This document shows, one piece after another, positions 27,186-46,403 of a stretch of DNA of 64,000 nucleotides. The notes beneath the pieces are model-generated. The model searched no databases. It was not told where the DNA came from and saw only the letters and a list, made by a program, of their open reading frames with translations. Made by a program: the position numbers and the translations under genes. The stretch spans positions 12,449 to 76,448 of the forward strand of contig JAYUHW010000039.1 of the NCBI GenBank assembly GCA_043766615.1. The letters run 5' to 3'. Positions within the stretch are counted from its first letter, which is position 1. Each line of letters opens with the position of its first letter. This DNA is from Fibrobacteria bacterium. Lineage in GTDB: Bacteria > Fibrobacterota > Fibrobacteria > UBA11236.

Positions 27186-27572
27186 AGAATGATAAAAGGT
27201 AAGACTACAAAGAAGCGGGCCTATTCCTTATGGCGGTAAGCATGTATGTAATACTGGCTGCATCCTGGTATGCAAGCGCCAGCTACTAAGGCATTGATTG
27301 AGAAATTCCATAAACTCTTGGCGCAGCACCGTGTGTTCAAGAGAATATTCGGTATCGTGTGAGTTACCTGTATGAGGGGTTGTTTAAGGTTTGTCTTATC
27401 AAATTCGTCAAATGCTGTTTAAAATTTCTCTACACTATTTTTAATTCGGTCTGAATCCAGGAATGGCCTATATGCAGTCTAATTTGTCATTTTTTAGGAT
27501 CGGGGTACACCCTGTCTTATTTCAATATTCAAAAAAACGGATTTCTTAGTTTAAGCAAGCAAAGCCAACACC

Positions 27573-29750
27573 TTATTTATCCCTGCGTAAAATAACGACT
27601 TCGTTGCTTCCTATTGGGAAGGGCTTAGAAATATCAAGAGGCTTTCCAGCACGCCCAATGGGCCAGATTATCATCAGATTTTTGGAATTGTCTAGGGATT
27701 TTAAACTCAGTGTTTGACTTCCCGACGTGGAATTGATGAAGAGAACAATTTCTTGATTTTCAAAACTATACGCTTTGATCAGGATAGTTGGAATGTTGAA
27801 TTGATGAAAGTGGCCACGATAATTATATGAAACAGGATGGTCCGGAAAATTATACGATAAGGAACGGGCTTGTCCCAGCATGAGAAAATCCTTAGCCTCA
27901 CTCTGCCAGATAGACGCTACTTCAACAAGCACCTTCTGCAATTTTTGCCCCAGCGAGTCATAATCCGGCACCTGCATCCAAATGGCTCCAGCAGGTAAAC
28001 GACCTGCAAGCAAGTTTGTGACCTGTTGATAAATAGCCATTACCAAGTTTTCTGGGTTGCTTACTAATTGTGCATCTCCCCCATATCCCAATAAATAATC
28101 ATGATAGAGATAGCTAAATAGTGGAATGCCATCGGAACCGTTTCCCTCTCTGGGCCAGGCACCTTCCATGTATTCACGAGCGTGAACAATATCCAGGTTT
28201 GGGATGAAAAATTCCCCAGGCTCTTCTAGGGAAAGTGCTGCACCATGGGCAAAGGTTTTTTCATGTGCTTGTCGCAAAATACTAGAAAAGCCTTGCGCTA
28301 ACTTATTCGACCCGGCTAGGGGATGGCCATGGGCTACATTAAAGCAGGGTGGAACGCCACCTCCGACCACTTGATCCACCTGAATCACATCCACCTTAAG
28401 ATCCAAGGACTTTTGCACGCCATTCAGGATCTGTTCACGGGCAGCATTAGTGGCTGGACACAGAATCCATTTATGGCCGGTCCCTTCTTGCGCGATACCT
28501 AAAGTGAGTATTTTCATGTCCCTTCCAACAATTGCGCTGGCTCGCAGTGAATCCAGCATACCCTTTGGAAGCCGATAGAACGGAGCTCCAGCACGTGGAG
28601 TTTTTTCCAAAGTCGCATATAATCCCGAAAGAAAAACCATGGTCTGGTTGCCTTGGTTATGTATTAAGCCTGACATTTTACGAAATGTATCCTCGTTTGG
28701 ATAAGGCGGGAAATAGTCTGGAGCTACCCAAGGACCGTTTTTCTCCCAACTGAAAAACAAATTGGTGATGGGCATTTTTAGGGCCAGCTGGTAGGCTTCG
28801 CTCAAATGCGGAATAAACGGGGACTGGTCGACGACGGATTTTCCCTTGTCTAGTCGGATATGATTACAAAGAAAGAAGCTTGGATTGGCGATGACTCTTG
28901 GCATTCCTTTTTCTCGGATGGTTTTTCTGCACCAAAATTGTTTGATCGCCCAGTTTCGGTAAACATCTGCGGCTTCTTCCCAGCCACCCTGGAAAGGTGC
29001 TAGAACGGTTCTGTACGGCAAACTAAAAGTTGAACCATCATTACCTACCACAATATGTTCAAAAGTTGGGATGATGTGTTCATGGTAACGCATTATTCTA
29101 AAACACTTATAATAACCTGCGCTGTCAGCAGTAAAGAGCACGACCCCATCGCTCTTATTGAACCAGGCCGTCATTTGTGAACTCATCAGGCCTGGGTATT
29201 CCCAATTGCGGCTTTCCCCTTCCTTCAACTTGTTGAAGGTGTCATAAATGCGGACTCCATCAGCAATGGAAAGGACTGTCTGCAAAGGCTGCGCAGATTT
29301 TTGGATGGCGATGCCTGGATACCGGAATATACCCGGTTTTCCAACCTTGGAATCGTTCCGGAAGTTCGCATCCCAGATTAATCCACCCCTAGCAATGCCT
29401 TCCTTCGACGCCCCGTCTTTAAAGGTCCAAACCCGGCATTCAATTTGGACTTTCTGCTTTTCGTGCGAGAATAGAATTTTTATTGTGTCCTGCAATTTGC
29501 TGGCACTAATTACCCTTCCCTGGAAAGAGGTTAGGGACTCAAGCTTGCCGTTTTCCAGCCACTCCAATTGGTACAACGGAAAAGGTTCACTGGGAGTAAT
29601 CCGAAAAGTGTTGGTTGAATATTTAATGGATTGGATATGCCAAGATGGCGTGCTTTCAAAATTAATGGTGACCGGTGAGGATTCAAGTTTAAGCTCGGAT
29701 CCGATTGCATCCAAAGTCAAAACCAAGGAAAGGACAATTTCGCGTATCAT
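27573..29750 (-). CDS. large secreted hypothetical protein (possible glycoside-hydrolase-like)
   Basis: 725-aa uninterrupted ORF with N-terminal hydrophobic segment. No motif I can name with confidence. Confidence 0.5.
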   Translation of the reverse strand: MIREIVLSLVLTLDAIGSELKLESSPVTINFESTPSWHIQSIKYSTNTFRITPSEPFPLYQLEWLENGKLESLTSFQGRVISASKLQDTIKILFSHEKQKVQIECRVWTFKDGASKEGIARGGLIWDANFRNDSKVGKPGIFRYPGIAIQKSAQPLQTVLSIADGVRIYDTFNKLKEGESRNWEYPGLMSSQMTAWFNKSDGVVLFTADSAGYYKCFRIMRYHEHIIPTFEHIVVGNDGSTFSLPYRTVLAPFQGGWEEAADVYRNWAIKQFWCRKTIREKGMPRVIANPSFFLCNHIRLDKGKSVVDQSPFIPHLSEAYQLALKMPITNLFFSWEKNGPWVAPDYFPPYPNEDTFRKMSGLIHNQGNQTMVFLSGLYATLEKTPRAGAPFYRLPKGMLDSLRASAIVGRDMKILTLGIAQEGTGHKWILCPATNAAREQILNGVQKSLDLKVDVIQVDQVVGGGVPPCFNVAHGHPLAGSNKLAQGFSSILRQAHEKTFAHGAALSLEEPGEFFIPNLDIVHAREYMEGAWPREGNGSDGIPLFSYLYHDYLLGYGGDAQLVSNPENLVMAIYQQVTNLLAGRLPAGAIWMQVPDYDSLGQKLQKVLVEVASIWQSEAKDFLMLGQARSLSYNFPDHPVSYNYRGHFHQFNIPTILIKAYSFENQEIVLFINSTSGSQTLSLKSLDNSKNLMIIWPIGRAGKPLDISKPFPIGSNEVVILRRDK

Positions 29751-29834
29751 GACGGGATTTAATCTACCTGGAAGCGAGGAAGACAGTCAATATCAGGTGG
29801 ATGGGTTTCGGAAGTAGATTGGAATGAAATATAA

Positions 29835-30857
29835 ATGAAATATCTAAAATCGAAATTATTGCCTGAAACGGCTTTGGAGGTTTTTATTATGATTCGACTT
29901 TTCACCCCATTGGACTTCTTGGATTTTTACCTTCAAGCAAAATGGTCGTATTTTAAAGCAGTTTTTCGAATCTTGCACATTTCTGGAAAGAGCCGGATTT
30001 TATCGCGCTGGAATAACCATACCAATCTGCAAATTAATTGGTATGACGTTCCCTACGTTGTGAAATATGTTCAAAAAAACATAACGGGTGATGCGGAAAC
30101 CGATTATGCGACCTATTTAATAGAACGGTTTTTCAAAGGCAGGAAGAATATACGTATGCTTTCTCCCGGATGCGGGGTAGGGGTCAAGGAACTCCAATTC
30201 GCCAAAATATCAGCCTTTGAAAAAATTGATGGTTTTGATATCGCACCGACCAGAATCGGTGAAGCGCAGAAAAGGGCATTGGCTCTTGGCTTGAGCAATA
30301 CGAATTTTTTCGTGGGAGACATTTATGATCTCAAGGTTGGGGAAAAGTACGATATTCTCCTTTTTGACAGCTGCCTGCACCATTTCGACAATCTCGACTC
30401 ACTTTTGGAAAAGGTTAAATCTTATATCAAACCAGATGGCTACTTGGTAATCCTAGAGTTCACTGGTCCAAATAGATATCAATACACTACCGACCATGTC
30501 CGAAAATGTAATGAAGCTTTAAGACTGATCCCCAAAACTCACCGTGTCTTTCTCAAATCTTCCTTGGTCAAGCAAAAGATATGGGCTCCAGGATATATCC
30601 GAATGTACTTATCCGATCCTTCAGAGGGCATCCGTTCGGGAGAAATTCTTCCTGCTATTTATAGGCAATTTAATGTCGTAGAAGAGAAAAAAATAGGCGG
30701 AGATCTGTTGGCACCAGTTCTGAAAGGCACCGTGCATCACTATATCGGAAATGACGATTCCAATTCTATTTTGAACAAGCTTTTCGAATTTGAATCCAAC
30801 TACCTTAAGTCACTGACCTATGCCAATCACACCTTTGGCGTTTACTCGCCAAAGTAA
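29835..30857 (+). CDS. class I SAM-dependent methyltransferase
   Basis: Motif I LSPGCGVG. Post-I acidic residue. AT-rich gene. Confidence 0.7.
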   Translation: MKYLKSKLLPETALEVFIMIRLFTPLDFLDFYLQAKWSYFKAVFRILHISGKSRILSRWNNHTNLQINWYDVPYVVKYVQKNITGDAETDYATYLIERFFKGRKNIRMLSPGCGVGVKELQFAKISAFEKIDGFDIAPTRIGEAQKRALALGLSNTNFFVGDIYDLKVGEKYDILLFDSCLHHFDNLDSLLEKVKSYIKPDGYLVILEFTGPNRYQYTTDHVRKCNEALRLIPKTHRVFLKSSLVKQKIWAPGYIRMYLSDPSEGIRSGEILPAIYRQFNVVEEKKIGGDLLAPVLKGTVHHYIGNDDSNSILNKLFEFESNYLKSLTYANHTFGVYSPK

Positions 30858-30937
30858 TTTATATCTACCCATACACCATTCTTGCAACTTAATTGAATCT
30901 ATTATGAAGTATTTTGTAGACCCGAACCAAACGGTGC

Positions 30938-31680
30938 ATGTTAGCTTTAAACATACAGGAGGCCTTCAGTCCAAGGTTGTTTAATTCCATCCATTTTGCG
31001 ATTTTCTTTCCCACCCTCCTAATCGTGAACTTTTCCCTACCTCATCGATATCGGTTGGTTTTATTGCTTGTGGTTAGCTATTACTTTTACATGAATTGGA
31101 AGCCAGAGTATGTCCTTTTACTTTTAGGCTCCACGGGAGTCAGTTGGATCTGTGGCAATTGTTTGGAGCGAACAAAGGATATCAAAAAACGGAAATGGAT
31201 TTTTGCATCCGGGATCTCGGCATTTCTTCTGTACCTCGTTTTCTTTAAATATTGGAATTTTAGAGCCGATCAGGTGAATACTGTTTCTGGTGCATTGAAA
31301 ATTCACCAAGCATTACCTCACCACGGAATACATCTACTCATAGGAATTTATTTTTTCACCTTCCTTACCCTGAGTTACCTAATCGATGTCTACTGAGGAA
31401 CAACCCAATCCGAACGTAATTTCGGGATGTATGCCCTATACGTCACCTTTTTTCCACAGCTAGTCGTAGATGACCGCTCCGCATTAATGGTTGATCTAGT
31501 ATATAAGGATTCATCTGCGTATCCGGGTATTGCCCTAGCAGCTGCGACTGTTTTATTCGACTTTGAGATTTATTGCGATGTCGTAGGGTGCATCGATTGT
31601 CATTTCCTCGGTGGAATTGATCTTTCAAGCTCTGATATGGAGGTAACGGAACTGAAACTCGGATGCAATTGAGAAGTTCG
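30938..31680 (+). pseudogene. MBOAT (AlgI/DltB-type membrane O-acyltransferase) remnant
   Basis: 152-aa ORF matches MBOAT N-terminus (…FFPTLL…YYFYMNWKPEYVLLLLGST…GIYFFTFLTLSYLIDVY) then stops. Downstream ORF 31427..31672 carries the next conserved block in degraded form (LYVTFFPQLVVD…FEIYCD). An intact MBOAT is about 470 aa. Confidence 0.65.
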
Positions 31681-31773
31681 AGATAGTCCTGGTCATTTAC
31701 ATATCTTAAAGAGTATGTGATTCCATCAAAAGGTTTTGTGTAATTTCCCATTTAAAAAAATTAAGGAGAACAT

Positions 31774-33231
31774 ATGTCGAATTTAAGAGTACTCTCGTAT
31801 CTGAACATTCTGATATTGGCGATTGGAACATTGACCGTTTCCCACGCTTCCATTTACTATGTCAATGACATTTCCGGCAGTGATGCCAATAACGGAACGT
31901 CAACGGGTACTGCTTGGAAAACTCTTTCGAAGGTAAACTCGACGAATTTTCAAGCCAACGACAGCGTACTTTTCATTCGGGGCGGTCAATGGCGTGGGCA
32001 ACTGGTTCCCAAAAGCGGTTCGGTATCGGGACCTGTGAGCTACGCGGCTTATGGAAGCGGTACGAAACCTTTGTTTTTGGGTTCCTTGAGCAAAGCCTCT
32101 ACGGGGAATTGGGTATTTGAAGGCGTTAATATCTGGCGCTCGGCAGATACATTTTCTGTAGACATCGGAAACATCATCTTCAATAATACAACTGTATTCG
32201 GAAAGAAAAAGTGGACCCAGGGTGGCCTCATGACTCAGGGTGACTACTATTTTAAAAGAACTTCGGGCACAAGAGGGGTCGTGAGGATCTATTCTTCCTC
32301 CAATCCTGGCTCATATTATAGCGGTGTTGAGCTTGCCCAACGGATCGATATGGTCAACTTTCAAAACGTAAGTTACGCCAAATTCGAAAACCTAGCTTTG
32401 AAATATGGTGCTGCGCATGGATTCGGTGGGGGGAATACACATCACATAACCATCCGTGCTTGCGATATCTCCTATATTGGCGGAGGTGACCTCAACCAGG
32501 ATGGGACCAATATCCGCTTCGGGAATGGTATTGAGTTTTGGGGAAGCGCCCACGACAACCTTGTTGAGAGATGCCTGATTTACGAAATATATGATACCGG
32601 GCTGACCAACCAGAACCATACCACGGCGGTTAGTCAATACAATATTTACTACTTCAATAACGCTGTATATAATTGCGCCTTGGCTTCCTATGAATATTGG
32701 AACAAGCCTTCGACTTCAACTACGGCCAACATCCGATTCGAAAACAACACCTGTGCGGGCGCTGGCTCTGGGTGGGGGATTCAGCGTCCGGACTTGGCGG
32801 GCGCTCATGTTATACTCTCATACAATGAGGCTAAAACGGACTCAATCTTCATTCGAAATAACATTTTTTACAAGGCACGGGTATCTCTATTTATGCCCTC
32901 GACTTGGCGGACGACGGATAATTACGACAAACTTGTCTTAAAAAACAACCTTTACTACCAGACGTATACAAGCGACACAATCGTCTATCTTTTCTATTCG
33001 ACAGCCTATACTTCCAGCACCTTTTCCAACTATAAGTCCGCAACTGGCCAGGATTCCAATTCCATTGTTTCTGATCCCCTCTTTGTAAATGCCGCTGGCT
33101 ATGACTACCATATTACGTCTTTTTCGCCCGCAATGAACGCCGGAAATGCCATCAGTTACATCGTGAAAGATTTTGACGACCAGGCTCGGACTCCAGCCTC
33201 CAATGACATTGGCGCGGATGAATACCAATAG
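31774..33231 (+). CDS. secreted right-handed parallel beta-helix repeat protein
   Basis: Signal peptide. N-terminal YYVNDISGSDANNGTSTGTAWKTL typical of beta-helix/pectate-lyase-fold proteins. Internal repeats. Confidence 0.6.
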   Translation: MSNLRVLSYLNILILAIGTLTVSHASIYYVNDISGSDANNGTSTGTAWKTLSKVNSTNFQANDSVLFIRGGQWRGQLVPKSGSVSGPVSYAAYGSGTKPLFLGSLSKASTGNWVFEGVNIWRSADTFSVDIGNIIFNNTTVFGKKKWTQGGLMTQGDYYFKRTSGTRGVVRIYSSSNPGSYYSGVELAQRIDMVNFQNVSYAKFENLALKYGAAHGFGGGNTHHITIRACDISYIGGGDLNQDGTNIRFGNGIEFWGSAHDNLVERCLIYEIYDTGLTNQNHTTAVSQYNIYYFNNAVYNCALASYEYWNKPSTSTTANIRFENNTCAGAGSGWGIQRPDLAGAHVILSYNEAKTDSIFIRNNIFYKARVSLFMPSTWRTTDNYDKLVLKNNLYYQTYTSDTIVYLFYSTAYTSSTFSNYKSATGQDSNSIVSDPLFVNAAGYDYHITSFSPAMNAGNAISYIVKDFDDQARTPASNDIGADEYQ

Positions 33232-33746
33232 GCCAGACTGGCAAGGTAGGATGGGATAAATTTCTCATCCTGACTTAGTCAGATGCCTAATCTCTCACCA
33301 GGGGCCTTGGTTGACTATAGGAAGGTTGAAACGAAGCCTTAAGGAGCGTGTCAGGATCGCTGGGTAGCGGAAATGGGCAATGCATGGGGAACCGAACCAG
33401 AACCACGGAGAACCGAGGAGACGATCAGCTACGGTCTTACCCATCCAGGAAAAAGTAGATCCCGTTTCAAGCCTCGGAATCAAGTGGCTCGATAGCGGGA
33501 AACTCCGTGTGTGGGTATGGGTCCTTGGGGGCGTGGCGCATCCATGCATAGCCTCATCGTCCAGGTGGAGTGTTAGGATTATGGGGAAGTGGGGGACACT
33601 CAATAATCCTCCTGTTTAGATAGTAGGCCAAATTTCAGTTTCAAAATCGTTTCGTAACAGGTTCATGTCTTTACGTAATCCTACCTGTAATTATAACTTC
33701 TCCGGTTCAAAGTCGGACATTTGTAATATGCCTGAAATGAGTAGGG

Positions 33747-34943
33747 ATGAAAGTGGAAAATGCGGTCAAAAGCGAGAGCGTAAGCCAGCCCCTCAAGCCA
33801 ACTTTTGGTTTACCAAACCTTGAAAGTCACCTTCCACTTGAAGCATTGAAAGTGTGTCTCTTCACTTGTGAAAGTATCGCCACATTGCGATGCAAATGGC
33901 TCGCTATGGAAACAGTCTGCAACCATTCATTTTTCACCAGTTGGCAATGGATTTCTAGTTGGATGGAAACCATGAATGCCGAGGTGCTGCAATGTGAAGC
34001 TTGGCTGGGTGAAGTATTAGTGGGCCTTGGACTCTTTGTGGAAAAGCGCGAGCGAGGCTTGGGATTAATCCCTTTCCGAAGACTTTTCCTACATAAAACA
34101 GGTGATCGTTACCGGGATCGTATTTGCATCGAATGGAACGACCTACTTATCCATCCTGGTTTAGAAGAAATTGTGCGACGCCAGGTGGTAGCCCACCTTA
34201 TCCAAGGTCCAAAAGGGGCCGATGAAGTGGTCTTTGGTCTAACCTCCGAGGGTCATGATGCTGGCATGGTCGTTCCAGAGTTCGCTCCCCGGATAAGTTA
34301 TCCGTATCCCTCTCCCTTTGTGGATTTGATTCGAGTGCGAACAGAAGGGGGGTTCGACAATACCCTTTCCCACAAGACACGCGCCAATGTGCGTAAAAGC
34401 ATTCGTCTGGCTGAAGCCATTGGAAAAATCGAATTACAAAGCGCTGCCACAGCCGAGGAAGCCCTTGCCTTCTTCCGTGATGCCGGGCCTTTGCATATCG
34501 AACGATTCAAAGATCGAACTACTAGTCGTCAAAGCGGCTACCTCAATCCCCACTTTGTGGCATTCCACGAGTGCCTGATACCAACCGCATTTAACCATGG
34601 TAATCTTGACTTCGTAAAGGTTACAACGGGCGGGATCTTGTTGGCTTATATGTATTTCTTCGTCTACCGTAAAGTGGTTTACTTTTATCAATCGGCGATC
34701 AATTACTCCAGTCTGGAAAAAGGCCAGCCTGGTCTGATTGCCAATTACCTTTGCATCCGAAAGTTCTCGGACCAAGGCATGATCAGGTATGATTTCCTAG
34801 CTGGCGATGCCCTTTACAAAAGGGTTCTTGGTACGGATACCGCAACCCTCAGGTTTTTCAATTACCGAAAGCGCAGTCTAAAGATGGTTGCGGCGGAAAA
34901 GTATCTGAGTTGGAAGAATCGTGCTTCTACGGGAATGGAGTAG
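33747..34943 (+). CDS. FemAB/GNAT-like acyltransferase family protein
   Basis: 398 aa. C-terminal GNAT-like region (…LLAYMYFFVYRKVVYFYQSAINYSSLEKGQPGL…). Confidence 0.5.
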   Translation: MKVENAVKSESVSQPLKPTFGLPNLESHLPLEALKVCLFTCESIATLRCKWLAMETVCNHSFFTSWQWISSWMETMNAEVLQCEAWLGEVLVGLGLFVEKRERGLGLIPFRRLFLHKTGDRYRDRICIEWNDLLIHPGLEEIVRRQVVAHLIQGPKGADEVVFGLTSEGHDAGMVVPEFAPRISYPYPSPFVDLIRVRTEGGFDNTLSHKTRANVRKSIRLAEAIGKIELQSAATAEEALAFFRDAGPLHIERFKDRTTSRQSGYLNPHFVAFHECLIPTAFNHGNLDFVKVTTGGILLAYMYFFVYRKVVYFYQSAINYSSLEKGQPGLIANYLCIRKFSDQGMIRYDFLAGDALYKRVLGTDTATLRFFNYRKRSLKMVAAEKYLSWKNRASTGME

Positions 34944-35329
34944 CCAAGAATGTCATCCGGAAAATGGACGAATTACTTGGGGAGCATTTGGCCCAAAAGG
35001 ATGTAGAATTGATGTTCGAAACTTCCCATAAACCAGGCGATTCACGCCCGTCCTTTGGATACCGCAAGGTCTTGTGCGCAAGGCTATCCATCGATTGCTT
35101 ATCGTTCGCCGATTTCAATTTCCGATCTCATTCCGAAATCCTTTTGGGAATCGCCCGAATCTTGGCAAGGCTGCCTCGCAAGGTTTACGAATTATTGGTC
35201 ACTAAGTCGAAAAACCACCTTAATGCAGATGACTATCTAAAGGTCTATAACTACACTGACCCTAACCAGCCTAAGGAATTTTCCAAAGCCCGATGTTATC
35301 TCACCTTAGGTGAGAAAATGGGATTTTAA
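34910..35329 (+). pseudogene. remnant of a paralog of the acyltransferase gene 37839..39080 (N-terminus and about 215 internal aa missing)
   Basis: KMDELLGEHLAQKDVELMFETSHKPG vs KMDTMLGERLAEKGVELLFGTPNKPG. C-terminal 65 aa (HSEILLGIARILARLPRKVYELLVTKSKNHLNADDYLKVYNYTDPNQPKEFSKARCYLTLGEKMGF) closely match the C-terminus of 37839..39080. Confidence 0.6.
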
Positions 35330-35388
35330 ATTAAGATTCGTGTCCAGAAAATCCCATATCACTGATGAGGAAAAGAAAGACTGAAAGC

Positions 35389-36699
35389 ATGAGAATCCTT
35401 TATTTTAATTATCAGATTTCCTCATTCGCCTCCATCGTGCGTTCACTGGAGTATGCTAAGGGGTTAACTAACGAGGGGCATGAAGTTGCGCTTTGCTACA
35501 TACATCCCCTATTCCATCCACCGGAAACCTATTATCAACTCATCACTGCTTATGAATCACCTCTGTTAAAGGTCCGTTATCCTTCCCGTAATCCCACTGC
35601 AACTATCCAAGCCAATGACGCTCGTAAAGATCCGATTAAGGGAAAAGTCGTGGACGGGATGCCGACTTTTTGGCGTCTCGTCCGGCAAATTCTCGCTTCC
35701 ATTAAATACATACCATCGGAACTTCGTTTGGTTGGCCAGTTTCGGCCTGACATTTTGCTGGCGCGTTCGGACCCAACTATTTCAACCAGCGTAACATCAT
35801 GGTTACGTAAGCTGCCTCTCGTGCTCGAAACCGATGGGCCACTGGAAGAGCTTGACAAGTATTGGGGATTGAATTCTCGCTGGCTTCTGCTTTTGGATTC
35901 CTGGCGTGCACGCCGGGCAGATGCCTTACTTTATATCAGCGAACCTTGCCGCCAATTATGGTTGCGCAAGCGTGTCTCCAGGGAGAAGCTCTTTTATACC
36001 CCCAATGCAGCCCACCCAGATCGCTTTCGTCCCTTGGAATCCTCTGCACGGCGGAGATTGCGAGCTAAGTTTGGATTAGAGGGACGCAAGGTCATAGGAT
36101 TTTCAGGAATCCTGCGCCCCTGGCATGGTGTGGATAACTTGCTAGCGGCTGCACTTCCCATCCTTGAGGAAGATCCTGATGTGCGGATTCTCTTCATCGG
36201 CTCAAAGTACGATGCTGAGGTTCTTGAACGCTGCCATGTCCCCGAGCCCATTGGCCGAGAAAAATTGGTGTTCACGGGACCCGTCCCGTATATGCAGATG
36301 GGGGACCACATCGACTTGGCAGACTGCATCGCTTTGCCATATCCTCCATCGGATTTCTTTTACTTTTCGCCCATGAAACTTTTCGAAGGCATGTGTTTGG
36401 GCAAGGTGATGGTGGCTCCACGCATGGAGCAGATCGAGGAAATGCTCCAGGGGCTTGCTTCCCCTGTTCTCTATGATCCCGCAGAAGGGGTCACAGCCTT
36501 ACGTCGATGCCTCAAGGAAGGTTTGCGTCGCGGCCTCTCCGCACCCTTCGAAACCGTTGCCGGTGCCGATGCTCGCGCGCGAATCGAAAATGCACATACT
36601 TGGGCACATCGAGGTAAGGTCGTGGCGAAAGCCTGCGAATATGCTGCTCGACGTAATCAAGGGCAGTCGGGGGGAATCACGCAATCTATTTTGAACTGA
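35389..36699 (+). CDS. GT-B fold glycosyltransferase (GT4-like)
   Basis: About 437 aa. C-terminal FSPMKLFEGMCLGKVMVAP nucleotide-sugar binding region. Start placed at MRILYFN. ORF track begins at 35365. Confidence 0.65.
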   Translation: MRILYFNYQISSFASIVRSLEYAKGLTNEGHEVALCYIHPLFHPPETYYQLITAYESPLLKVRYPSRNPTATIQANDARKDPIKGKVVDGMPTFWRLVRQILASIKYIPSELRLVGQFRPDILLARSDPTISTSVTSWLRKLPLVLETDGPLEELDKYWGLNSRWLLLLDSWRARRADALLYISEPCRQLWLRKRVSREKLFYTPNAAHPDRFRPLESSARRRLRAKFGLEGRKVIGFSGILRPWHGVDNLLAAALPILEEDPDVRILFIGSKYDAEVLERCHVPEPIGREKLVFTGPVPYMQMGDHIDLADCIALPYPPSDFFYFSPMKLFEGMCLGKVMVAPRMEQIEEMLQGLASPVLYDPAEGVTALRRCLKEGLRRGLSAPFETVAGADARARIENAHTWAHRGKVVAKACEYAARRNQGQSGGITQSILN

Positions 36700-36779
36700 T
36701 TAGAATTTAATTTGGCGAGGAACCAGGCCTACGGTCCAGTGTCCTCTTTTACCCGGAATGTTGGGGAAAAGACACGAGG

Positions 36780-36920
36780 ACATGGTTCCAGTTTGTTTTG
36801 TTACTTCTCCTTCCCCCAGTGCACGACCAGGCGCGCCGATTCTGCCATATGGATCAGCGAAATTGCGAAATCCTGTGAATCCATTGCATTGCAGGCAGCT
36901 GGTATTTCTTAGTGTCAATT
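36780..36920 (-). pseudogene. short remnant of a CE4 (NodB) deacetylase gene related to 50807..53600 paralogs
   Basis: Within ORF 36700..37011(-): LQCNGFTGFRNFADPYG vs FLQCNGFTGFRHFAYPYG in 50807..52183 (NodB motif 3 region). Confidence 0.45.
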
Positions 36921-37334
36921 CCTTTTCTTTGAAAGTGGAAGCACTTTTATCAACTATTAGCCTAAGGACATTTGGGGTTAGGAGATAATGTGAGGCGTCC
37001 GCTACCAACACCCCATCTCCTTAATCTCTTTTCTACTCCGTACCTATTGCTTTGTTGAAAAAGAACCGGGACCTTGTAGCCTACAATACTTCTCTCTTTC
37101 TGTCGGGTTGGTATAAAGTCATCTACTGATGATATTCAGTTCCAAACAAGGAATTGTTGCATTCAACCTTTGGATGATAGTTGCCAGCAGTGAAAGGTCA
37201 CTAAGCAGAAGGGGACGAACCATGGAAATTCCCGGATTGCAGGTTTAAGGAATGATTCTCCTAAATATTAATCAATGATAAAATATTAGTTTAACTATCC
37301 TGTTTAATTATTTCAGTCGTATTCCGAAATTAGT

Positions 37335-37640
37335 TCAATCATTTCGTAACAGGAACAGGCCTTTACTTGGTCGCACGACGTGCGCGCCAGGTGTCCAAGC
37401 GCCGCATCCAGCGGGAATCCAATCCCCAGTATTAGTCGAACTCTTCCAACGGCCTATCGGTTCGAGAACCAGAGGCAGTGAGAGAAGTCGTGAAGATATG
37501 GAATTGGACAGGGTAGGGTCAGAACGCGCCATCAGAGCGTCTGGACGGAATTCATCGATCCTGCGGAGTTCCTTCGCGACGAAATTCATAGAGGCTGCAA
37601 ATTTCCGGTAGAGGCTCCTCATAGTCGGCTTCCCGTCCAC
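37335..37640 (-). pseudogene. remnant of a paralog of glycosyltransferase 35389..36699
   Basis: EFRPDALMARSDPTLSNSISSRLLSLPLVLE vs QFRPDILLARSDPTISTSVTSWLRKLPLVLE (residues about 130-160 of the intact GT). Confidence 0.55.
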
Positions 37641-37838
37641 GCTCTTTACTTCGACCGGAGCCTGGCTGGGCTTGGTAGCGCGGATGTTACTATGGGAGTT
37701 CCGCGTAACCTCATGTCCCTCATCTGCTGCTCCTTTGCCTTACTCCAAGGAACGTACGATGGAGGCGAATGAGGAAATCTGGTAATTGAAATAGAGAATC
37801 CTCATGGGTCTAGCCTTGCTTTTCCCGGGTGTCCCATG

Positions 37839-39080
37839 TTAGAACCCGAATTTCTCACCAAGAGTGTAATACCAGCGTCCTTTTGCGAATTCCTTGGACT
37901 TGCCTGGGTCGGGATAGTAAAAGACGGTCAGATAATCGTCCACGTGGAAATGATTTTCTGCTTTCGCGATCAAAAATTCGTGAACCTTTTTGGGCAAGCG
38001 TGCCAAGGCCTGACCCATTTCTTTTAAGATTTCGGAATGAGAACGGAACCCATGCCGCAGGAAGACCTCGTAACTAATGGTGTCCGCGATTCCCATGACC
38101 GTTAGGACTGGCGCACTTCGACTGGCTAGCTGCATGCAAACCCCGATCAATAGGTCGTATACACGTGCGTCCAAAGCTATGAATTCCATCAGGGCCGCAG
38201 CTTCGCAGCGATTTGGATGGATGCGCAGCACGGCCAATCCCATCAGTTTGCCACCCTGGAGCAGGCGGATCTTTTCATAAGTGTAGCCGTCACCGCCTCC
38301 GTACCTCCAATTGAGGAATTCAGCATTCCGGCAAGTACCAAACTCAATGCTCCGCATAAATTCGTTGCAGAAACCATCAATGTCTTTCGCCACAAATCTG
38401 TCGAGCTTCTCCCAGCTCCACCCGGTAGGTAAGCTATGCAAACGAAAGCGGCCAAAGTTCAGTAATCGATGGACGGCCTTACGGAGTGGGCCTTGCGGCA
38501 GCCAAAGGGCTGGAGTGAATACTTTGGATTGATAAACGCTTTTGGGGCCGTCGGCACGACGGTAGAGTCGCTTTGCGACCAAATAGCCAGGTTTGTTGGG
38601 TGTGCCAAATAGCAACTCTACACCTTTTTCTGCCAGGCGCTCTCCAAGCATTGTGTCCATTTTCCGGATGACATCATGCTTGCCGCCGCGGTAATTCTCA
38701 TTGACGATGAATTCCGTCCCCAGCGCCAATTGAGGAACGCGGCAACCTGGTATGGTGGGAAAGACAACGGCTGCCAAGTGACCGACAATGGTTTCGTCAG
38801 GCGCTAGTGCGAGGATGATGCAATCGCTGCAATCTACCGGACCCTGACGGAATTTCCAGTCCATGAAAGCGGCTCCACCGCGCGATCCCAGGTACTTGGA
38901 CTTAAATGCTAGGAGCGCTGCTTCGAATTTAGGGGTCATGAATTGAAGAGTGAGTTCAGGAGAGTCTTTGAGTGTCTCTCCAGCTACGTTTTCTATGGCT
39001 TGCATGATTTCTCCTTTCCAGCGGAAGCACGGAGCTTCCACCTCAGAACAATTTGCGGCGCAATGCGCCAGAATCTTCAA
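37839..39080 (-). CDS. GNAT/FemAB-like acyltransferase (intact copy)
   Basis: 413-aa ORF. Source of homology for remnant 34910..35329. Confidence 0.6.
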   Translation of the reverse strand: MKILAHCAANCSEVEAPCFRWKGEIMQAIENVAGETLKDSPELTLQFMTPKFEAALLAFKSKYLGSRGGAAFMDWKFRQGPVDCSDCIILALAPDETIVGHLAAVVFPTIPGCRVPQLALGTEFIVNENYRGGKHDVIRKMDTMLGERLAEKGVELLFGTPNKPGYLVAKRLYRRADGPKSVYQSKVFTPALWLPQGPLRKAVHRLLNFGRFRLHSLPTGWSWEKLDRFVAKDIDGFCNEFMRSIEFGTCRNAEFLNWRYGGGDGYTYEKIRLLQGGKLMGLAVLRIHPNRCEAAALMEFIALDARVYDLLIGVCMQLASRSAPVLTVMGIADTISYEVFLRHGFRSHSEILKEMGQALARLPKKVHEFLIAKAENHFHVDDYLTVFYYPDPGKSKEFAKGRWYYTLGEKFGF

Positions 39081-39289
39081 GCGGGAATAAACGCACGCTC
39101 AGAGTTTCCGGGGATGGCATTGCAAGGGAATTAAAGCGGGAGCGATTTGCGTTCTCGGTTAGGACGTTCTGTTCCACTTTCAACCCTGAACCTTATTCCG
39201 ACATTTCCGACATTGAAGGCGATAATCTAAAAGGCCAAGTAGGCTCACGTAAAGACATGTTTCCGTTACAGAATGGTTTTGACTTTGAA

Positions 39290-40831
39290 TTAAAATGAAT
39301 CTGAAACGTCATTTCCATCTTTTAGTCGCTCCATGGACGCCAGCATGGCTGCCGTCAAAATGATCAATCCCACGATGGCCTCCTTGCGCAAACCGACATC
39401 GTAAAGGTTGGCAAACCCGAAACCGGCGAATACGGCCATGCCGGTCAGCCCAACTGCAAAATGAAGTTCGCTTCGACCCTTCAGAATGCGGGCCGACCGA
39501 CGGATCTGTCCCCAGAGCAGGGTCAGCAGCAAGGCCAAGGCGGGCAGCCCCGTTTCGGCCGCCACCAACAAGAAGCCGTTATGGACGGGTTGCCTGATGA
39601 TATGCGTAATATGGTTCGGATCGAAGCGGATCATGCTTTCCTCGAAAGTATTAAGGCCGATTCCCAGCAGGGGATGGGAACTGATCATCTCCCAGGCCAC
39701 TAAGGCCAAGTCCATACGCGATTCGAATTCCTTCCCCTCAGTGCGGAATAAGCGCGTGAACATGGTATCGAGCACACCCGAAGCTTGCAAAACACCCACA
39801 AAGGCGACGCAGACCAAGACCAGCAAGGCTACCGACCAAAGCTTGAGTCGACGTGTACGCAGGGCCCAGATGGATATGCCCAGGGCATTGGCTGCGAAGA
39901 CCATCCATCCATTGCGGGAAAATGTCAAGACCAGGGCCACTAGGCCCGCAACCAGAAATGGTAGGGTCGCCAATCGCAACCAGAGTCTGATCCTGGCGAA
40001 AAGAATAATGAGACAGAATGCGCATGCCGCGCCAAGGTAGGCGGAAAATGTATTGCAATGACCGAGCACGCCGGTAACACGTAGAATCATTTCATTTCCA
40101 ACCATTTCCGCATCCGCGCCGGAAACGCTCCCTACTGGGATGGGTAACTGGAAATAGAGGAAGTATTGCATATAGGAAACCAGACCTTGGATAGCCAGCA
40201 CCCCAATTTGGGCCGCCAGTACTGCCCAGAATGCTTTTGGGCTGTCGAGGTAGGTGCGTAGCATCATGTACACGAGGAAATATTTCAGATATCGGAAAGC
40301 CTCGAAAGCCACGAGCAGATATTCCTCGGTATTGAAAAGGGAGAGCAGGGAGATGCATACAAATGCTACGGCAAGACTATCTGTGCGGGTCCAAGGCGGG
40401 AGTCGCTTTCGCCCTGTGCGCAAGTCCCACAACCAGAAAAGGGAAAGTAACAGGATGGGTAGATCAACCAAGAAAATCACCGGTTCAGGCGGCGCGCCTC
40501 CGAAATGCTCGGTGAGCGTGAACTTGCTCCCATGAGTCCATAAGTTGTATTGGAACCCAATCGGGATGCACAGGGAGATAAGACAGACGACCAACATCCG
40601 CCGGTCACGTACGAACGCAAGTCCCGCTAGGGCCAGATAGGCCATTCCTGTAAGCGCCAACCATTTGCCGCCCATGGAAAAAGCGCTGACTAGGCCGGTT
40701 CCCAAAACGATGGCTACCCCGGCAGGTATCCAGTAGCCCACTTCGCCGGGGTGAGCTTCAGCCCTAAGTGTCAGAAGAACCGCCGGTAAATGAATTCCGG
40801 GATGACGTCGGCCCGGCGATTGAAAAGGCAT
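39290..40831 (-). CDS. O-antigen ligase/Wzy-family polysaccharide polymerase
   Basis: About 12 TM segments with large periplasmic loop region. Start may be internal (overlaps upstream gene by about 60 nt if 40831 is used). Confidence 0.7.
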   Translation of the reverse strand: MPFQSPGRRHPGIHLPAVLLTLRAEAHPGEVGYWIPAGVAIVLGTGLVSAFSMGGKWLALTGMAYLALAGLAFVRDRRMLVVCLISLCIPIGFQYNLWTHGSKFTLTEHFGGAPPEPVIFLVDLPILLLSLFWLWDLRTGRKRLPPWTRTDSLAVAFVCISLLSLFNTEEYLLVAFEAFRYLKYFLVYMMLRTYLDSPKAFWAVLAAQIGVLAIQGLVSYMQYFLYFQLPIPVGSVSGADAEMVGNEMILRVTGVLGHCNTFSAYLGAACAFCLIILFARIRLWLRLATLPFLVAGLVALVLTFSRNGWMVFAANALGISIWALRTRRLKLWSVALLVLVCVAFVGVLQASGVLDTMFTRLFRTEGKEFESRMDLALVAWEMISSHPLLGIGLNTFEESMIRFDPNHITHIIRQPVHNGFLLVAAETGLPALALLLTLLWGQIRRSARILKGRSELHFAVGLTGMAVFAGFGFANLYDVGLRKEAIVGLIILTAAMLASMERLKDGNDVSDSF

Positions 40832-42744
40832 CCAGCCAAGTTAGTCCCATTCCGTCGGATGATGTCGGCCATACGGCCCAAGGCCTGCTTGCTAGTATGA
40901 TCATAAGACGTTACTAAAATTACATGATCAACCAAGTGAGCGAATTGCAAATACCGTGAATCCATCCAGGGGGTGCCGGCGTCGATGAGAAGATTTTGGA
41001 TCCCGGCTTCGCGCAATGATTCAAAAATACCATGGGCGTTAAATCCGCCTGCAGCTAAACTTACCGAACCGGCCGGTAAGATCAAACGGTACACGCCATA
41101 ATGTTCATCCCGCACCAAGGCCTCTTTAGATCGCGGCACGACATCCAAGCTTTTTCCATTCCTATTTGTGATATCCACCGGATCCAGGGAAACGATGGCG
41201 GTGGAACCGATTGTCGCCAGCATGCCACCCAAATGATTGCATAGCATGGTAGTGCCTACTCCGGGCGAGGGTGAAACCATGAGGATGGATCGCATTTCAG
41301 GCATGCCCGTGTTTGGCCGCACCAAACCGGCGGATACCGGAAAAAGGGCTTGTGCACATGCGGCCGATGGTCTTTCCAGAGTAGGAATTTCCCCGTTCAG
41401 GAACCGGGGTATGGAAGCGAGTACAGGCGCCTTGGCCGCTTTTTCCACATCTTCAGCGGATAGGACACGCGAAGAACCCGCATCAAGGGCGACAGCAAAC
41501 GTCGCTCCGAAAACTACTCCGAAAAAGACGCTGATGATCAGGAATGGCATCCGCTTAGGGAAGGCGGGGGCGGGATCAGCTACGGCCGGTTCAACCACGC
41601 GCGCCCCGGCTAATGCGGCTTTGTCCATCGCTTTTGATATGAGAACTTCATCCGTTTTCTCGCGATTGAGATTTGCCATTCTCTGCAATTCATTAATCTC
41701 CTGTCGGATACGATCGATTTCGACCTTATGTGCATCCAAGGAGGCTAACTCTGATCGATAGCCACTGGAAATAGCATTCCAGGTCTTAAGGCTTTTTTCC
41801 ACCCGCTGCTGGATCAGGGACCTCAGCTGGTCGATTTCCTGGGAACTGGACACGAGTTTGCGATCGTTGCCCCCATAGCGCGTAGCCAATTCTATGCGGC
41901 GCATTTCGGCATCAGTTAAGCGTCGCGACAATTCTGCCACGGCAGCATCTTCCGTTACATCTTCCAGGGTTTCTGAGGACAAGTTTCTTTTGGTAAGACT
42001 GCCTAGCAGTCGGATATGTTCTTCGGCCTGTCCTAGCTTGTCCAGCAGATTTCGTCTTTGGGCATCGACGTCGGAGATTTTGTTTCGGCTAGTGTAAGCG
42101 TTCAGCCTGTCTTCGGCTTGGCGTAGCTGATCCTGGCTCGCAGCCAGTTCCTCACGCAAGGCATCCAGTACATAGGCATTGCCATGCACCTGGATATGGT
42201 GGGTGAGGTAGGCGTCAATGAGGGCGTTGACCACGTCGCGGGCCAATTCGGGCGAGGCTCCACGCCACTTGACCGTAATAATATTGGTGCGACGGATATA
42301 ATCCACATCCACTTTGCGGCGCAACTGACTGATGGCGGCGGCTCGAGCTGGAACTTCCGGCACAAGGCCCACCTCTTTCATAACTGTACCGAGTCCCTTG
42401 AAGAAATGGTAGGCCGACCATTTGAGAAAGTGTTTTTTCTCAGGCTTATGATCGAGAGCTAGGCCACAGGTATCCACAACCTTGGCCAGCACAGGATAAC
42501 TTGTCATCAACTCTACTTCGCTGCCCACGTCCTCGGGGGAAAGCTGGATCAGGCTGGTTCGCGCGTCGCGTTCATCTGGTAAGAAGGGCTTTTTGAAACG
42601 ACTAGCCGTGAGTAAGACTGTGGCTTTAGACTGGTAGGTTGCCGGTAGGATATAGGTCAACGACATGGGAAATATGACCATGCAAATGAAGAACACCATA
42701 AAGGCGCGCTTGCGGCGGAAGAGTGTCGTTAAAATTTCCTTCAC
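40771..42744 (-). CDS. Wzc/GumC-like polysaccharide co-polymerase with C-terminal BY-kinase-like domain carrying a lysine-less Walker A
   Basis: N-terminal TM + long coiled-coil periplasmic domain + second TM. C-terminal MVSPSPGVGTT (P-loop-like, K replaced by T). Confidence 0.75.
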   Translation of the reverse strand: MKEILTTLFRRKRAFMVFFICMVIFPMSLTYILPATYQSKATVLLTASRFKKPFLPDERDARTSLIQLSPEDVGSEVELMTSYPVLAKVVDTCGLALDHKPEKKHFLKWSAYHFFKGLGTVMKEVGLVPEVPARAAAISQLRRKVDVDYIRRTNIITVKWRGASPELARDVVNALIDAYLTHHIQVHGNAYVLDALREELAASQDQLRQAEDRLNAYTSRNKISDVDAQRRNLLDKLGQAEEHIRLLGSLTKRNLSSETLEDVTEDAAVAELSRRLTDAEMRRIELATRYGGNDRKLVSSSQEIDQLRSLIQQRVEKSLKTWNAISSGYRSELASLDAHKVEIDRIRQEINELQRMANLNREKTDEVLISKAMDKAALAGARVVEPAVADPAPAFPKRMPFLIISVFFGVVFGATFAVALDAGSSRVLSAEDVEKAAKAPVLASIPRFLNGEIPTLERPSAACAQALFPVSAGLVRPNTGMPEMRSILMVSPSPGVGTTMLCNHLGGMLATIGSTAIVSLDPVDITNRNGKSLDVVPRSKEALVRDEHYGVYRLILPAGSVSLAAGGFNAHGIFESLREAGIQNLLIDAGTPWMDSRYLQFAHLVDHVILVTSYDHTSKQALGRMADIIRRNGTNLAGCLFNRRADVIPEFIYRRFF

Positions 42745-42751
42745 TCGGGCC

Positions 42752-43759
42752 TCAAGGTAAACTTAGGGATGTAGCCGGGACGCTTACGCCCACAGCGAAC
42801 GGCAGATTCTTGCGCAAATATTGGTCCACGAATAGGTTCAAATCGGTGATTGCGGAACGAGGAAGGAAGACCAGGTCACCGCCTACGAGCCTGATCTCAG
42901 TCGCTGTCATTAAATCCTTTTCCAAGTCTACTTTACTGATGATGACCTGCTTCTCGCGTCTTTGCACGAGGATGATATCCTGCAGGTGTGCGCTCGGGAG
43001 CCAGCCTTCGGCCATACCCAATGCTGCCGTAAGCGAGACGGTTCCTTCTACCGGAAAAGAGCCTGGCCTCTTTAGTTCACCAAGTACCGTTACAAATCGA
43101 GAAGAGCCAGGTGTAATGTTCACGGTCACTTCTACGCCTGGCAGGATCTTGAAGTAGGCTTGACGCAGCTCTGCATTGAATTCCTGCGGAGTAAAACCCT
43201 CCGCTCGCAGGTAACCCAGCTGGGGGAAAACCGCCTTTCCGTCCAATCCGATTGTGGCAGAGTATTCGGGTCCTTGTTTGCCGACGCTCCCCAACCCCTG
43301 CAGTACCGCGTCCAGCTTTCCGGCGAAGTGGAGCGGAACCAGAGTCACGCGGGCAGTTTGAACCATGGGCTGGTATTTTTCTTCGGCGAGGGTTTGCAAC
43401 TCCTTGAGGGTCTTGCCTCCGGCTGGCAGCGGAGCGAGGTAAGGAAAATAAATCTTCCCGTCCGGCGCAACGGTGGACACCCGTCCAAGATCGTCTCGAT
43501 CTTGGACGCTCAATTGCACTTCATCCCCAGCCTGCAATCGATAGTCTTCGGAAATACTGTCACTAAGCGATCGCATAAAGGTTACGCTAAGGCGATCTCC
43601 GGGCTGGCAGCGGTACTCGAGCCTTACGTCCCGAGCGGGCGCCTGTAAAGACATTCCTCGATATTTGGCATCGAAGGAACATCCCGCCAGAGCAGCAACC
43701 ATGCTGACCAAAACCAGTGGAAGTAATTTATTCATGGGTCCTTTTGATCTTTTTCCCAA
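42752..43759 (-). CDS. Wza-family polysaccharide export outer-membrane protein
   Basis: Lipoprotein-like signal (AGCS). Poly_export motif YRCQPGDRLSVTF. SLBB-like repeats. Confidence 0.85.
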   Translation of the reverse strand: MGKRSKGPMNKLLPLVLVSMVAALAGCSFDAKYRGMSLQAPARDVRLEYRCQPGDRLSVTFMRSLSDSISEDYRLQAGDEVQLSVQDRDDLGRVSTVAPDGKIYFPYLAPLPAGGKTLKELQTLAEEKYQPMVQTARVTLVPLHFAGKLDAVLQGLGSVGKQGPEYSATIGLDGKAVFPQLGYLRAEGFTPQEFNAELRQAYFKILPGVEVTVNITPGSSRFVTVLGELKRPGSFPVEGTVSLTAALGMAEGWLPSAHLQDIILVQRREKQVIISKVDLEKDLMTATEIRLVGGDLVFLPRSAITDLNLFVDQYLRKNLPFAVGVSVPATSLSLP

Positions 43760-44072
43760 TATTTTTTCCAGGAAGAATATCGACTACTGATGTTTCATTT
43801 GTATTTCGGAGATGTTTTTTTCAAGAAACTAGCCGATCGCAATTTACGTAGTTCTAGGTCGCCTATGGTAAACAGAAAGTTTACTGAGCATGAACTGTCG
43901 CGGAGAGTTGTGAAATATTTCTGTATTCAAAATGAAATATCCATTCGATTGTTTAGACTCTGCAATAGGATTGGAAGTAAATCGAAATATGACCGGGTGT
44001 ACACGGGGACCGAAGAAAGCCAAATTAAATTGCGATTAAATTTCGGACGGACCTGGGTCGAATGGAAAAATC
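43760..44072. promoter_or_regulatory. divergent promoter region between wza-wzc-wzy operon and deacetylase-GT-wzx operon
   Basis: 313-nt AT-rich non-coding gap between divergently oriented gene starts. Contains small inverted repeat GTAAAC-N5-GTTTAC at 43868-43884. Confidence 0.4.
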
Positions 44073-46378: not shown

Positions 46379-46403
46379 GGTTTAGGAAGCATAGGTCAGT
46401 GTT

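Follow-up and report, generated by a model that had tools for sequence, protein, structure and literature searches.

Two diverged, inverted copies of a putative polysaccharide-modification cassette with complementary gene loss in a Fibrobacteria contig

Bacterial surface-polysaccharide loci (capsule, O-antigen, EPS) contain gene remnants, and their clusters are reshuffled by recombination. The locus described here lies in a 64-kb stretch of a Fibrobacteria contig, hereafter the window. It resembles such loci in its predicted Wzx/Wzy-type cluster with glycosyltransferase, acetyltransferase and deacetylase genes, and in the truncated or frameshifted relics that sit at the junctions of transcription units while each function is kept in single copy. 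In contrast to them, its relics make up two recognisable, collinear, inverted copies of a three-gene cassette, and the scanned ORFs included no insertion sequences or transposases at the junctions.

Two other described situations invite comparison. Non-functionalisation by reciprocal gene loss leaves what we find here, one intact representative of each gene (A6, X and GT) across two cassette copies; moreover, the left-type X gene that is dead in the window is intact in its closest relative, contig L007, whose adjacent A6 is dead. The case departs from reciprocal loss after duplication in that the second copy may be an import and in that L007 and L012, the contigs with the complementary content, may belong to different genomes. 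Invertible switches (Hin/Gin-type, fimS, the Bacteroides polysaccharide promoters) share with this locus inverted repeats around a segment, in a polysaccharide locus. Those switches, however, depend on a site-specific recombinase of their own that acts on short, near-identical repeats, and what they flip is a promoter or a coding end, whereas the repeats here are gene relics of 65-77% identity, no recombinase was found among the scanned ORFs, and the intervening DNA consists of the 3' part of GT and dead gene fragments.

The two cassette copies

When 33000-36800 was compared with 36801-40000 by blastn, six inverted matches were obtained, all of them collinear, which pair 33.6-35.9 kb (+) with 39.3-37.4 kb (-) at E values down to 7e-24. 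They join 33641-33720 to 39282-39203 (71% identity), 34888-34940 to 39063-39011 (74%), 34950-35042 to 38674-38582 (74%, E 6e-12), 35040-35116 to 38520-38444 (75%, E 9e-10), 35120-35491 to 38048-37703 (65%, E 7e-24) and 35649-35918 to 37641-37373 (68%, E 8e-23). The nucleotide-level collinearity on which an earlier, sequence-only reading of this DNA had staked its case is thus present. That reading had described a unit of two genes, an acyltransferase and a glycosyltransferase; the unit in fact comprises three genes plus an upstream element, in the order U, A6 (a CelD-like Acetyltransf_6 protein), X (a rare tandem-GNAT protein) and GT (a GT4 glycosyltransferase), and the right copy, too, once had an Acetyltransf_6 gene. 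In the left copy A6 and GT are intact and X has been shortened by three deletions. In the right copy X is intact, A6 has an internal deletion of ~1 kb, and GT is interrupted by a stop codon and indels and has lost its 3' part. The 64-kb window holds one intact gene each for A6, X and GTb. It is likely that the locus is a Wzx/Wzy-type polysaccharide cluster holding two tail-to-tail copies of a modification cassette; the enzyme functions named throughout are predicted from sequence.

On the left, element U_L (33610..33746, +), with a conserved core of approximately CAAAATCGTTTCGTAACAGGAACATGTCTTTAC, has homologues at 39289-39203 (-) and 37298-37366 (+) and in contigs L007 and L012, and every one of these homologies starts inside 33610-33642. 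A6_L (33747..34943, +) is an intact CelD/BcsL-like acetyltransferase of 398 aa that scores above the gathering threshold of Pfam PF13480 (80.5 bits, E 1.8e-22; cut-off 22) and aligns over its full length with orthologues at 55-76% amino acid identity; its homologues carry the JGI name CelD/BcsL family. The X pseudogene X'_L (34947..35329, +), inside the 139-aa ORF 34910-35329, retains only three blocks spread over two reading frames, is recognisable at the protein level (tblastn E 1.3e-22), lacks 327, 64 and 392 nt relative to the intact L007 gene, and has a GC content down to 44%. GT_L (35389..36699, +; 436 aa from ATG 35389) is an intact GT4-family glycosyltransferase of GTb type with a GC content of 52%. 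It exceeds the curated Pfam cut-offs for Glyco_trans_1_4, Glyco_trans_4_4 and Glyco_transf_4 (PF13692 44.7, PF13579 39.5, PF13439 37.7 bits) and is 65-72% identical in amino acids, full length, to the GTb proteins of contigs L002, L005 and L006. A decayed GNAT-like fragment followed by an intact GT, as originally read on the plus strand, is borne out.

On the right, genes for a Poly_export protein, a Wzz-like chain-length protein and a Wzy polymerase (39290..43759, -; Pfam and synteny) read towards the cassette; this region is 70.6% identical in nucleotides to contig L006 across 4.4 kb. The block 37.3-43.8 kb has 51-54% GC and a GC3 of 0.56-0.62, compared with 45-48% GC in most of the remaining cluster genes. 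This high GC fits import as well as duplication. Immediately after the Wzy stop codon lies U_R (39203..39289, -; repeats, blastn and alignment), followed by the Acetyltransf_6 remnant A6'_R (39008..39183, -), which was delimited by alignment and tblastn. In the remnant ~45 N-terminal and ~18 C-terminal codons are fused across the ~1 kb deletion: left 33634-33897 aligns to right 39289-39051 and left 34888-34956 to right 39064-38996, the A6 N-termini of L002 and L005 match 39183-39049 in tblastn, and the deletion junction sits at the microhomology TTGCG..GCAAA.

X_R (37839..39005, -) aligns over its full length with five homologues at 51-70% identity. The gene is intact, as had been said of a minus-strand GNAT-like gene, but it does not begin at 39080: its start is most likely ATG 39005, giving 388 aa, the same start as is called for the public protein P0001, and the 75 nt by which the 413-aa ORF extends further upstream are left over from the A6 3' end. 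The GT pseudogene GT'_R (37373..37825, -) extends from the start codon region to roughly codon 176-185; tblastn places GT residues 3-185 at 37823-37372 in two frames (E 2.5e-38). It has a TAA at codon 22, a 95-nt deletion and two 1-nt indels, and everything 3' of about codon 176 has been lost. The decayed GT fragment reported earlier on this strand is therefore real but larger than was claimed.

Both fragments match their intact counterparts, as had been noticed: the 139-aa ORF is 52% identical to the 413-aa ORF over 89 aa (E 2e-27) and 62% over 34 aa, and a 101-aa ORF is 52% identical to GT over 63 aa (E 1e-18), the QFRPDILLARSDPTISTSV block included. X'_L, GT'_R, A6'_R and the two spacer remnants described below, CE4' and MT', all combine homology with disabling lesions and are classed as pseudogenes. 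For annotation, this means that the 139-aa, 101-aa and 103-aa ORFs are relics, not genes, and that the 413-aa ORF should begin at 39005.

Protein X and related cassettes

X matched no Pfam family even at E <= 10, and the small ORFs were likewise without families in Pfam. A profile search with X nevertheless reaches 598 proteins, sampled members of which carry Acetyltransf_9 and Acetyltransf_1; proteins of roughly 355 aa with both domains appear at E 4e-20 and weaker. An AF2 model of X matches the double-GNAT folds of Eis, NMT and VipF (Foldseek E about 3e-9), with modest model confidence (pLDDT 64, TM about 0.4). Remote profile homology and predicted fold thus agree with the GNAT-like label first attached to X despite the missing direct Pfam hit, and they place X in what appears to be a rare, uncharacterised double-GNAT family. 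Its closest relatives by profile and fold are Eis, N-myristoyltransferase, VipF and the Acetyltransf_9 proteins; X differs from them in lacking a Pfam hit of its own and in having a C-terminal tail that is conserved and peculiar to the family (...SKEF..RWY.TLGEK.GF). A search of 5.8 billion clustered proteins gave only six close homologues, and those with names come from Fibrobacteria metagenome genomes. Elsewhere, relatives of X amounted to one species representative among GTDB genomes and three distant matches on metagenome contigs.

The comparison sequences are metagenomic contigs throughout. Within them the order A6-X(-GT) recurs in L002, L005, L006 and L013, contigs other than ours and mostly of Fibrobacteria; in L006 and L013 Wzy, A6 and X are neighbours, as in the right copy. 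In every locus examined the gene immediately upstream of X is a CelD-like acetyltransferase gene, intact or decayed, and this constant adjacency suggests that the A6 and X enzymes act together on the polymer. L007 has a decayed A6 and an intact X, and L012 has A6-GT without X, both contigs stemming from one other metagenome; members of such cassettes thus seem to be often lost. The flanks of the cassette differ among L007, L012, L002 and L005. A shared upstream context for the left copy was considered and dropped, the 485-aa protein before the left cassette not being homologous to the 473-aa protein before the L002 cassette.

Debris between the copies

The spacer begins with MT' (36716..36811, +), what is left of a methyltransferase gene, namely its final 32 codons; in amino acids it is 81% identical to the C-terminal end of the L012 methyltransferase (E 4e-15 when the spacer alone is searched, 1e-12 for the whole window). 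At the nucleotide level MT' is 85% identical to L012 3838-3922 and 75% identical to window 50694-50769.

Next to it lies CE4' (36816..37160, -), a decayed polysaccharide deacetylase gene. With CE4_458, a PF01522 protein, as query, tblastn placed residues 51-74 and 69-130 (E 9e-15), 318-340 (74% identity, E 5e-9) and 353-362 in CE4', including the FA(Y/D)PYG block; the gene has two in-frame stops and frame changes, and residues ~131-317 are deleted. A CE4 remnant between the units had been predicted at about 36780-36920, and its presence is upheld, its position and extent being those given here. With a profile of the 352-aa CE4 type, made from window 44073-45131 plus L002, L005 and L006, each of the six reading frames of the spacer had a negative bit score. 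A blastn search of the entire window with the spacer traced CE4' to the other CE4 type, at 50807-53600: CE4' is a paralogue of the CE4 gene 50807-52183, not of the one at 44073-45131.

A third, partial upstream element, U_M (37298..37372, +), adjoins the truncated end of GT'_R in direct orientation relative to U_L. Its local alignment to U_L scores 50, compared with 21.9 +/- 3.2 (maximum 37) for shuffled sequences, and it is 91.7% identical to the U of L012 over 36 nt. The presence of MT', CE4' and U_M points to several rearrangements instead of one inverted duplication. Models with one inversion, with a tandem duplication and subsequent inversion, and with a tandem-inversion duplication were tried, and each needs extra events to account for U_M and the MT'-CE4' order. 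Most probably, this debris accumulated where the two transcription units run towards each other.

U stands at the 5' edge of the cassette in its three window copies and in L007 and L012, with a different upstream context each time. Scans for sigma-70 promoters and terminators returned fewer sites than in shuffled sequence, and an Rfam search returned no match. It is conceivable, if improbable, that U (~45-140 nt) is a recombination or cassette-boundary site which shuffles polysaccharide-modification cassettes, more than a promoter, and that the orphan U_M could, in addition, start antisense transcripts that run into X_R; in a weaker version of the same idea, rare crossovers at the 26-nt identical segment of the GT 5' end would still flip 35.4-37.8 kb.

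Age and origin of the copies

The arms are 65-77% identical and share no exact match longer than 26 nt. In trees, X'_L clusters with the intact X of L007, not with X_R (bootstrap 100%), and GT_L and A6_L cluster with L012 rather than with the right copy (86% and 97%); these are crude neighbour-joining trees on p-distances of 300-435 columns, in which shared low GC could draw the window copies together. Over shared tree columns X'_L is 77% identical to L007 and 66% to X_R; in aligned nucleotide blocks the figures are 83-87% to intact L007 X and 65-73% to X_R. GT_L and GT'_R differ by 0.31/0.18/0.49 at codon positions 1/2/3, and the functional pair GT_L and L002 by 0.27/0.20/0.54; this concentration at third positions suggests that most of the divergence arose while both copies were functional. 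X_R and L007 differ by 0.20/0.14/0.52, a third-position excess indicating purifying selection on X_R, and X'_L and L007 by a nearly flat 0.23/0.17/0.29. The codon-position patterns thus point to an old split and a later inactivation. A recent in-place inverted duplication does not fit, since the copies are not each other's closest relatives and their arms are 65-77% identical; of the inverted duplication with reciprocal decay first proposed, the inverted units and the complementary decay stand.

We envisage that the two copies, whether paralogues or the result of importing one of them together with a Poly_export-Wzz-Wzy block, diverged until their nucleotide identity was about 70%, both still being functional. 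Redundancy would then have permitted loss, with exactly one intact copy retained per gene: A6 and GT on the left (+) and, on the right (-), X, as the last intact gene after Wzy. That redundancy caused the loss, and that events took this order, we infer from the patterns above.

How the right copy arose is less certain. Its arrival by horizontal transfer or homeologous replacement from a related lineage, as a Poly_export-Wzz-Wzy-U-A6-X-GT block that made the resident cassette partly redundant, is a possibility to which we give less than even weight. The GC content of 37.3-43.8 kb (51-54%, GC3 0.56-0.62, against 45-48%), a Wzy-A6-X adjacency that matches the GC-richer relatives L006 and L013, the abrupt stop of the block within GT at 37372, next to unrelated debris, and the variable flanking context of the cassette across L007, L012, L002 and L005 are all consistent with import. 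Yet the GC difference is modest, GT_L itself having 52%, the block has no flanking mobile-element genes, and X_R, A6'_R and GT'_R lie nearer to the group of window-left, L007 and L012 than to L002, L005 or L006, so that the donor would be a fairly close relative. A contig chimera, in which two strains or populations were joined in the spacer and the copies never coexist in one genome, could likewise draw on a GC difference between the sides, on the low-GC debris of the junction zone at 36.7-37.4 kb and on the metagenome assembly from which the sequence comes. We regard it as very improbable: a Logan assembly (SRR22198347, 17.8 kb) runs through the entire region and agrees with the contig at 100% identity over 25688-43496, an assembler would not confuse arms as diverged as these, and a left copy without X facing a right copy without A6 and GT fits coexistence in one genome.

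The sequence-only reading had gone further: a unit of two genes, copied in place in the opposite orientation and then subject to complementary loss, would have left repeats that can invert the segment between them and could thereby switch polysaccharide modification. The inverted collinear homology and the complementary decay in this model are both real. The GT 5' end is the best conserved part of the arms (77% over 122 nt, with the 26-nt exact match at 35413/37781), and a crossover there would in principle rejoin the intact GT body to the X_R unit. Nevertheless, the arms are 65-77% identical with exact matches <=26 nt, the phylogeny and codon-position patterns speak for an old split, and the unit has three genes. 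The minimal processing segment in E. coli, roughly 23-27 bp, likewise argues against recombination between such arms. Recombination frequency is described as dropping log-linearly up to about 15% divergence and lying near background beyond (10.1101/2020.05.13.090589; PMC4824099). Among ORFs of at least 170 aa in 12.9-56.4 kb, a Pfam scan found no recombinase or invertase, only polysaccharide-synthesis and unrelated enzymes. The NCBI contig and Logan contig L001, which probably derive from the same reads, agree on a single orientation, and the DNA between the arms is debris of other genes, not a switchable payload. Such a switch, with the in-place duplication behind it, is therefore highly unlikely, and the arrangement is probably a fixed relic.

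The locus is a case of ordinary gene-cluster evolution with nothing pointing to a new mechanism, and it illustrates neatly one course that the evolution of polysaccharide loci takes, a cassette being duplicated or imported and its redundant members then lost. A parallel case of loss of cassette members is seen in the other metagenome, in L007 and L012.

Two inverted copies of a cassette

Blastn of 33000-36800 against 36801-40000 returned six collinear inverted matches of 65-75% identity (best E 7e-24 and 8e-23), and a repeat search of the window independently recovered the same arms (repeats I1-I6). Left and right arms are 65-77% identical, with a longest exact match of 26 nt at 35413/37781. 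At the protein level, a 139-aa open reading frame (34910-35329) matches the 413-aa frame at 52% over 89 aa (E 2e-27) and 62% over 34 aa, and a 101-aa frame (37335-37640) matches the glycosyltransferase at 52% over 63 aa (E 1e-18). Thus the inverted homologous units described in the sequence-only reading are real, and its small open reading frames do match their intact counterparts. That reading had also proposed duplication of a two-gene unit; the collinear inverted copies stand, but the unit comprises three genes, A6 (Acetyltransf_6), X (tandem-GNAT) and GT (GT4 glycosyltransferase), plus an upstream element, U.

The left, plus-strand copy retains A6_L (33747-34943), which encodes a CelD/BcsL-like Acetyltransf_6 protein (PF13480, 80.5 bits) and sits just beyond the interval originally considered, and GT_L (35389-36699), a glycosyltransferase of the GT4 family in which several Pfam domains exceed their cut-offs. 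The right, minus-strand copy retains X_R (37839-39005), whose most probable start codon, ATG 39005, agrees with the public gene call and gives a protein of 388 aa. The 64-kb window as a whole contains a single intact A6, a single intact X and a single intact GT of this type. In other, mostly Fibrobacteria, contigs (L002-L006 and L013), A6 and X are likewise adjacent and co-directional, and what comes next is either a GT of this type or CE4 with three GTs.

Complementary decay and its age

The lesions bear out the claim of complementary decay. X'_L, the plus-strand X remnant, survives as three tblastn blocks in two frames (34937-35326) and, relative to the intact gene of the related metagenome contig L007, has suffered deletions of 327, 64 and 392 nt. 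GT'_R, the decayed minus-strand GT copy, is indeed present and larger than first described: tblastn places GT residues 3-185 at 37823-37372 in two frames (E 2.5e-38), with a TAA at codon 22, a 95-nt deletion, two 1-nt indels and nothing kept past about codon 176. As for the right A6, left 33634-33897 aligns with right 39289-39051, left 34888-34956 aligns with right 39064-38996, and the right-hand motif TTGCGCCGCAAAT aligns to both of these left positions. Because one right motif matches two left positions, the right A6 carries an internal deletion of about 1 kb at microhomology. Its remnant, A6'_R, confirmed by tblastn with A6 N-termini of relatives, keeps about 45 N-terminal and 18 C-terminal codons.

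The closest relative of the dead X'_L is the living X of L007 (JGI 3300082759), a contig whose own upstream A6 is internally deleted. L007 X is 83-87% identical to X'_L over two upstream blocks and 76% over the third, and 72% identical overall to X_R. In a neighbour-joining tree X'_L and L007 group with 100% bootstrap, X_R joins them, and all three stand apart from L002, L005 and L006. L012, from the same metagenome as L007, has the order methyltransferase-U-A6-GT and wholly lacks X; in trees, its GT and A6 cluster with the left window copies (bootstrap 86% and 97%), to the exclusion of the right remnants. Differences at codon positions 1/2/3 are 0.31/0.18/0.49 for GT_L against GT'_R, like functional orthologues; about 0.22/0.10/0.52 for X_R against L007, indicating purifying selection; and 0.23/0.17/0.29 for X'_L against L007, the flat pattern of neutral decay. 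Taken together, arm similarity, the L007 comparison, the trees and the codon-position patterns indicate that the split between the copies is old, that purifying selection acted while they diverged, and that inactivation came later.

The second copy may have been made by duplication in this lineage, or it may have been imported with the Poly_export-Wzz-Wzy block. GC content is 51-54% (GC3 up to 0.62) in the right cassette together with Wzy, Wzz and Poly_export (37300-43800), against 45-48% for most other cluster genes (23700-37300 and 44000-53600); decayed stretches have drifted to 43-44%. The JGI 3300082759 metagenome shows a parallel cassette split, with decayed A6 and intact X in L007 (1-2420) and A6-GT in L012 (3159-6762), where 14 nt separate A6 from GT and X is cleanly missing.

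Spacer debris and the question of inversion

We decoded the spacer between the copies by blastn against the whole window and related contigs. On the plus strand, MT' (36716-36811) preserves the 3'-terminal 32 codons of a methyltransferase gene (81% aa identity to that of L012, E 4e-15). The CE4 remnant previously placed at about 36780-36920 exists, but its coordinates shift to 36816-37160: this minus-strand CE4' is a degenerate copy of the CE4 gene found at 50807-52183. It matches residues 51-74 and 69-130 (E 9e-15) and 318-340 (E 5e-9) and is disrupted by stops, frame changes and an internal deletion. Searching the spacer with a profile of the 352-aa CE4 type gave no match. A third, partial copy of U, U_M (37298-37372, plus strand), adjoins the truncation point of GT'_R; it aligns to the left U with a score of 50 (shuffles 21.9 +/- 3.2) and shares 91.7% identity with U of L012 over 36 nt. 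With MT', CE4' and U_M side by side, the convergence zone records several events, not one.

The U core (about CAAAATCGTTTCGTAACAGGAACATGTCTTTAC) lies some 70-100 nt 5' of A6 in every cassette copy (window 33610-33674, 37298-37366 and 39203-39289; L007 549-690; L012 4169-4290). Better conserved than the surrounding coding DNA, U may be a promoter, an operator or a cassette boundary.

Another relic is the methyltransferase gene that follows the flippase (50310-50779, plus strand): its 5' part is lost, and of the 255-aa L012 protein it matches residues 74-154 and 177-255 alone, in two different frames. At 50807-53600 (minus strand) lie tandem CE4-domain paralogues of 458 and 456 aa, 56% identical to each other, with the deacetylase domain in the C-terminal half; their N-terminal 230 or so residues matched no Pfam family.

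The suggestion that the repeats could act as an inversion switch found no support. The minimal processing segment in E. coli is roughly 23-27 bp. Since recombination also falls log-linearly as divergence rises to about 15%, past which it hardly exceeds background (10.1101/2020.05.13.090589, PMC4824099), arms at 23-35% divergence with one 26-nt identical stretch are very poor recombination substrates. Scanning the ORFs of 170 aa or more between 12.9 and 56.4 kb turned up no recombinase. Over 25688-43496 the window and the Logan assembly of SRR22198347 agree at 100% identity and have the region in one and the same orientation. Promoter, terminator and Rfam scans added nothing.

Protein X and the polysaccharide locus

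X has no Pfam match even at E <= 10. Its family is very small, with only five close homologues found (six sequences, P0001-P0006, 51-100% identical) among 5.8 billion clustered proteins; NCBI names two of them, each as a hypothetical protein from a Fibrobacteria metagenome genome. A profile built from the six sequences extends to 598 remote relatives; of the 150 listed, most are about 320-400 aa long, and all 10 sampled carry Acetyltransf_9, most also Acetyltransf_1. Foldseek matched an AlphaFold model of X (pLDDT 64) to Eis, N-myristoyltransferase and VipF, all double-GNAT enzymes (E ~3e-9). The label "GNAT-like" is therefore right, through remote homology. X also carries a conserved C-terminal tail with no counterpart seen in ordinary GNATs.

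The two copies lie in a polysaccharide cluster of the Wzx/Wzy type, with a WecA-like initiating transferase, one GT2, several GT4s, a flippase, a Wzy polymerase, Wzz-like chain-length and Poly_export proteins, and CE4 deacetylases. The plus-strand unit would supply A6 and GT, read through the dead X, and the minus-strand Poly_export-Wzz-Wzy unit would supply X as its last intact gene. Because the X gene lies directly 3' of A6, intact or decayed, in every locus examined, the two are probably acyl or aminoacyl transferases working on the same sugar. That redundant cassette copies decay in complementary ways, and that polysaccharide loci hold gene relics, is already familiar; this locus is a clear new example of such decay, with its anatomy corrected. 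Minor leads are the rare X family and the conserved boundary element U.

A DUF6259 protein of about 725 aa (27573-29750, minus strand) is a conserved locus member, also found in L002, L005 and L006, with varying gene position and orientation. The di-haem cytochrome c peroxidase (CCP_MauG) gene at 18024-20021 (minus strand), with 59% GC against a window mean of 48%, may be foreign DNA.
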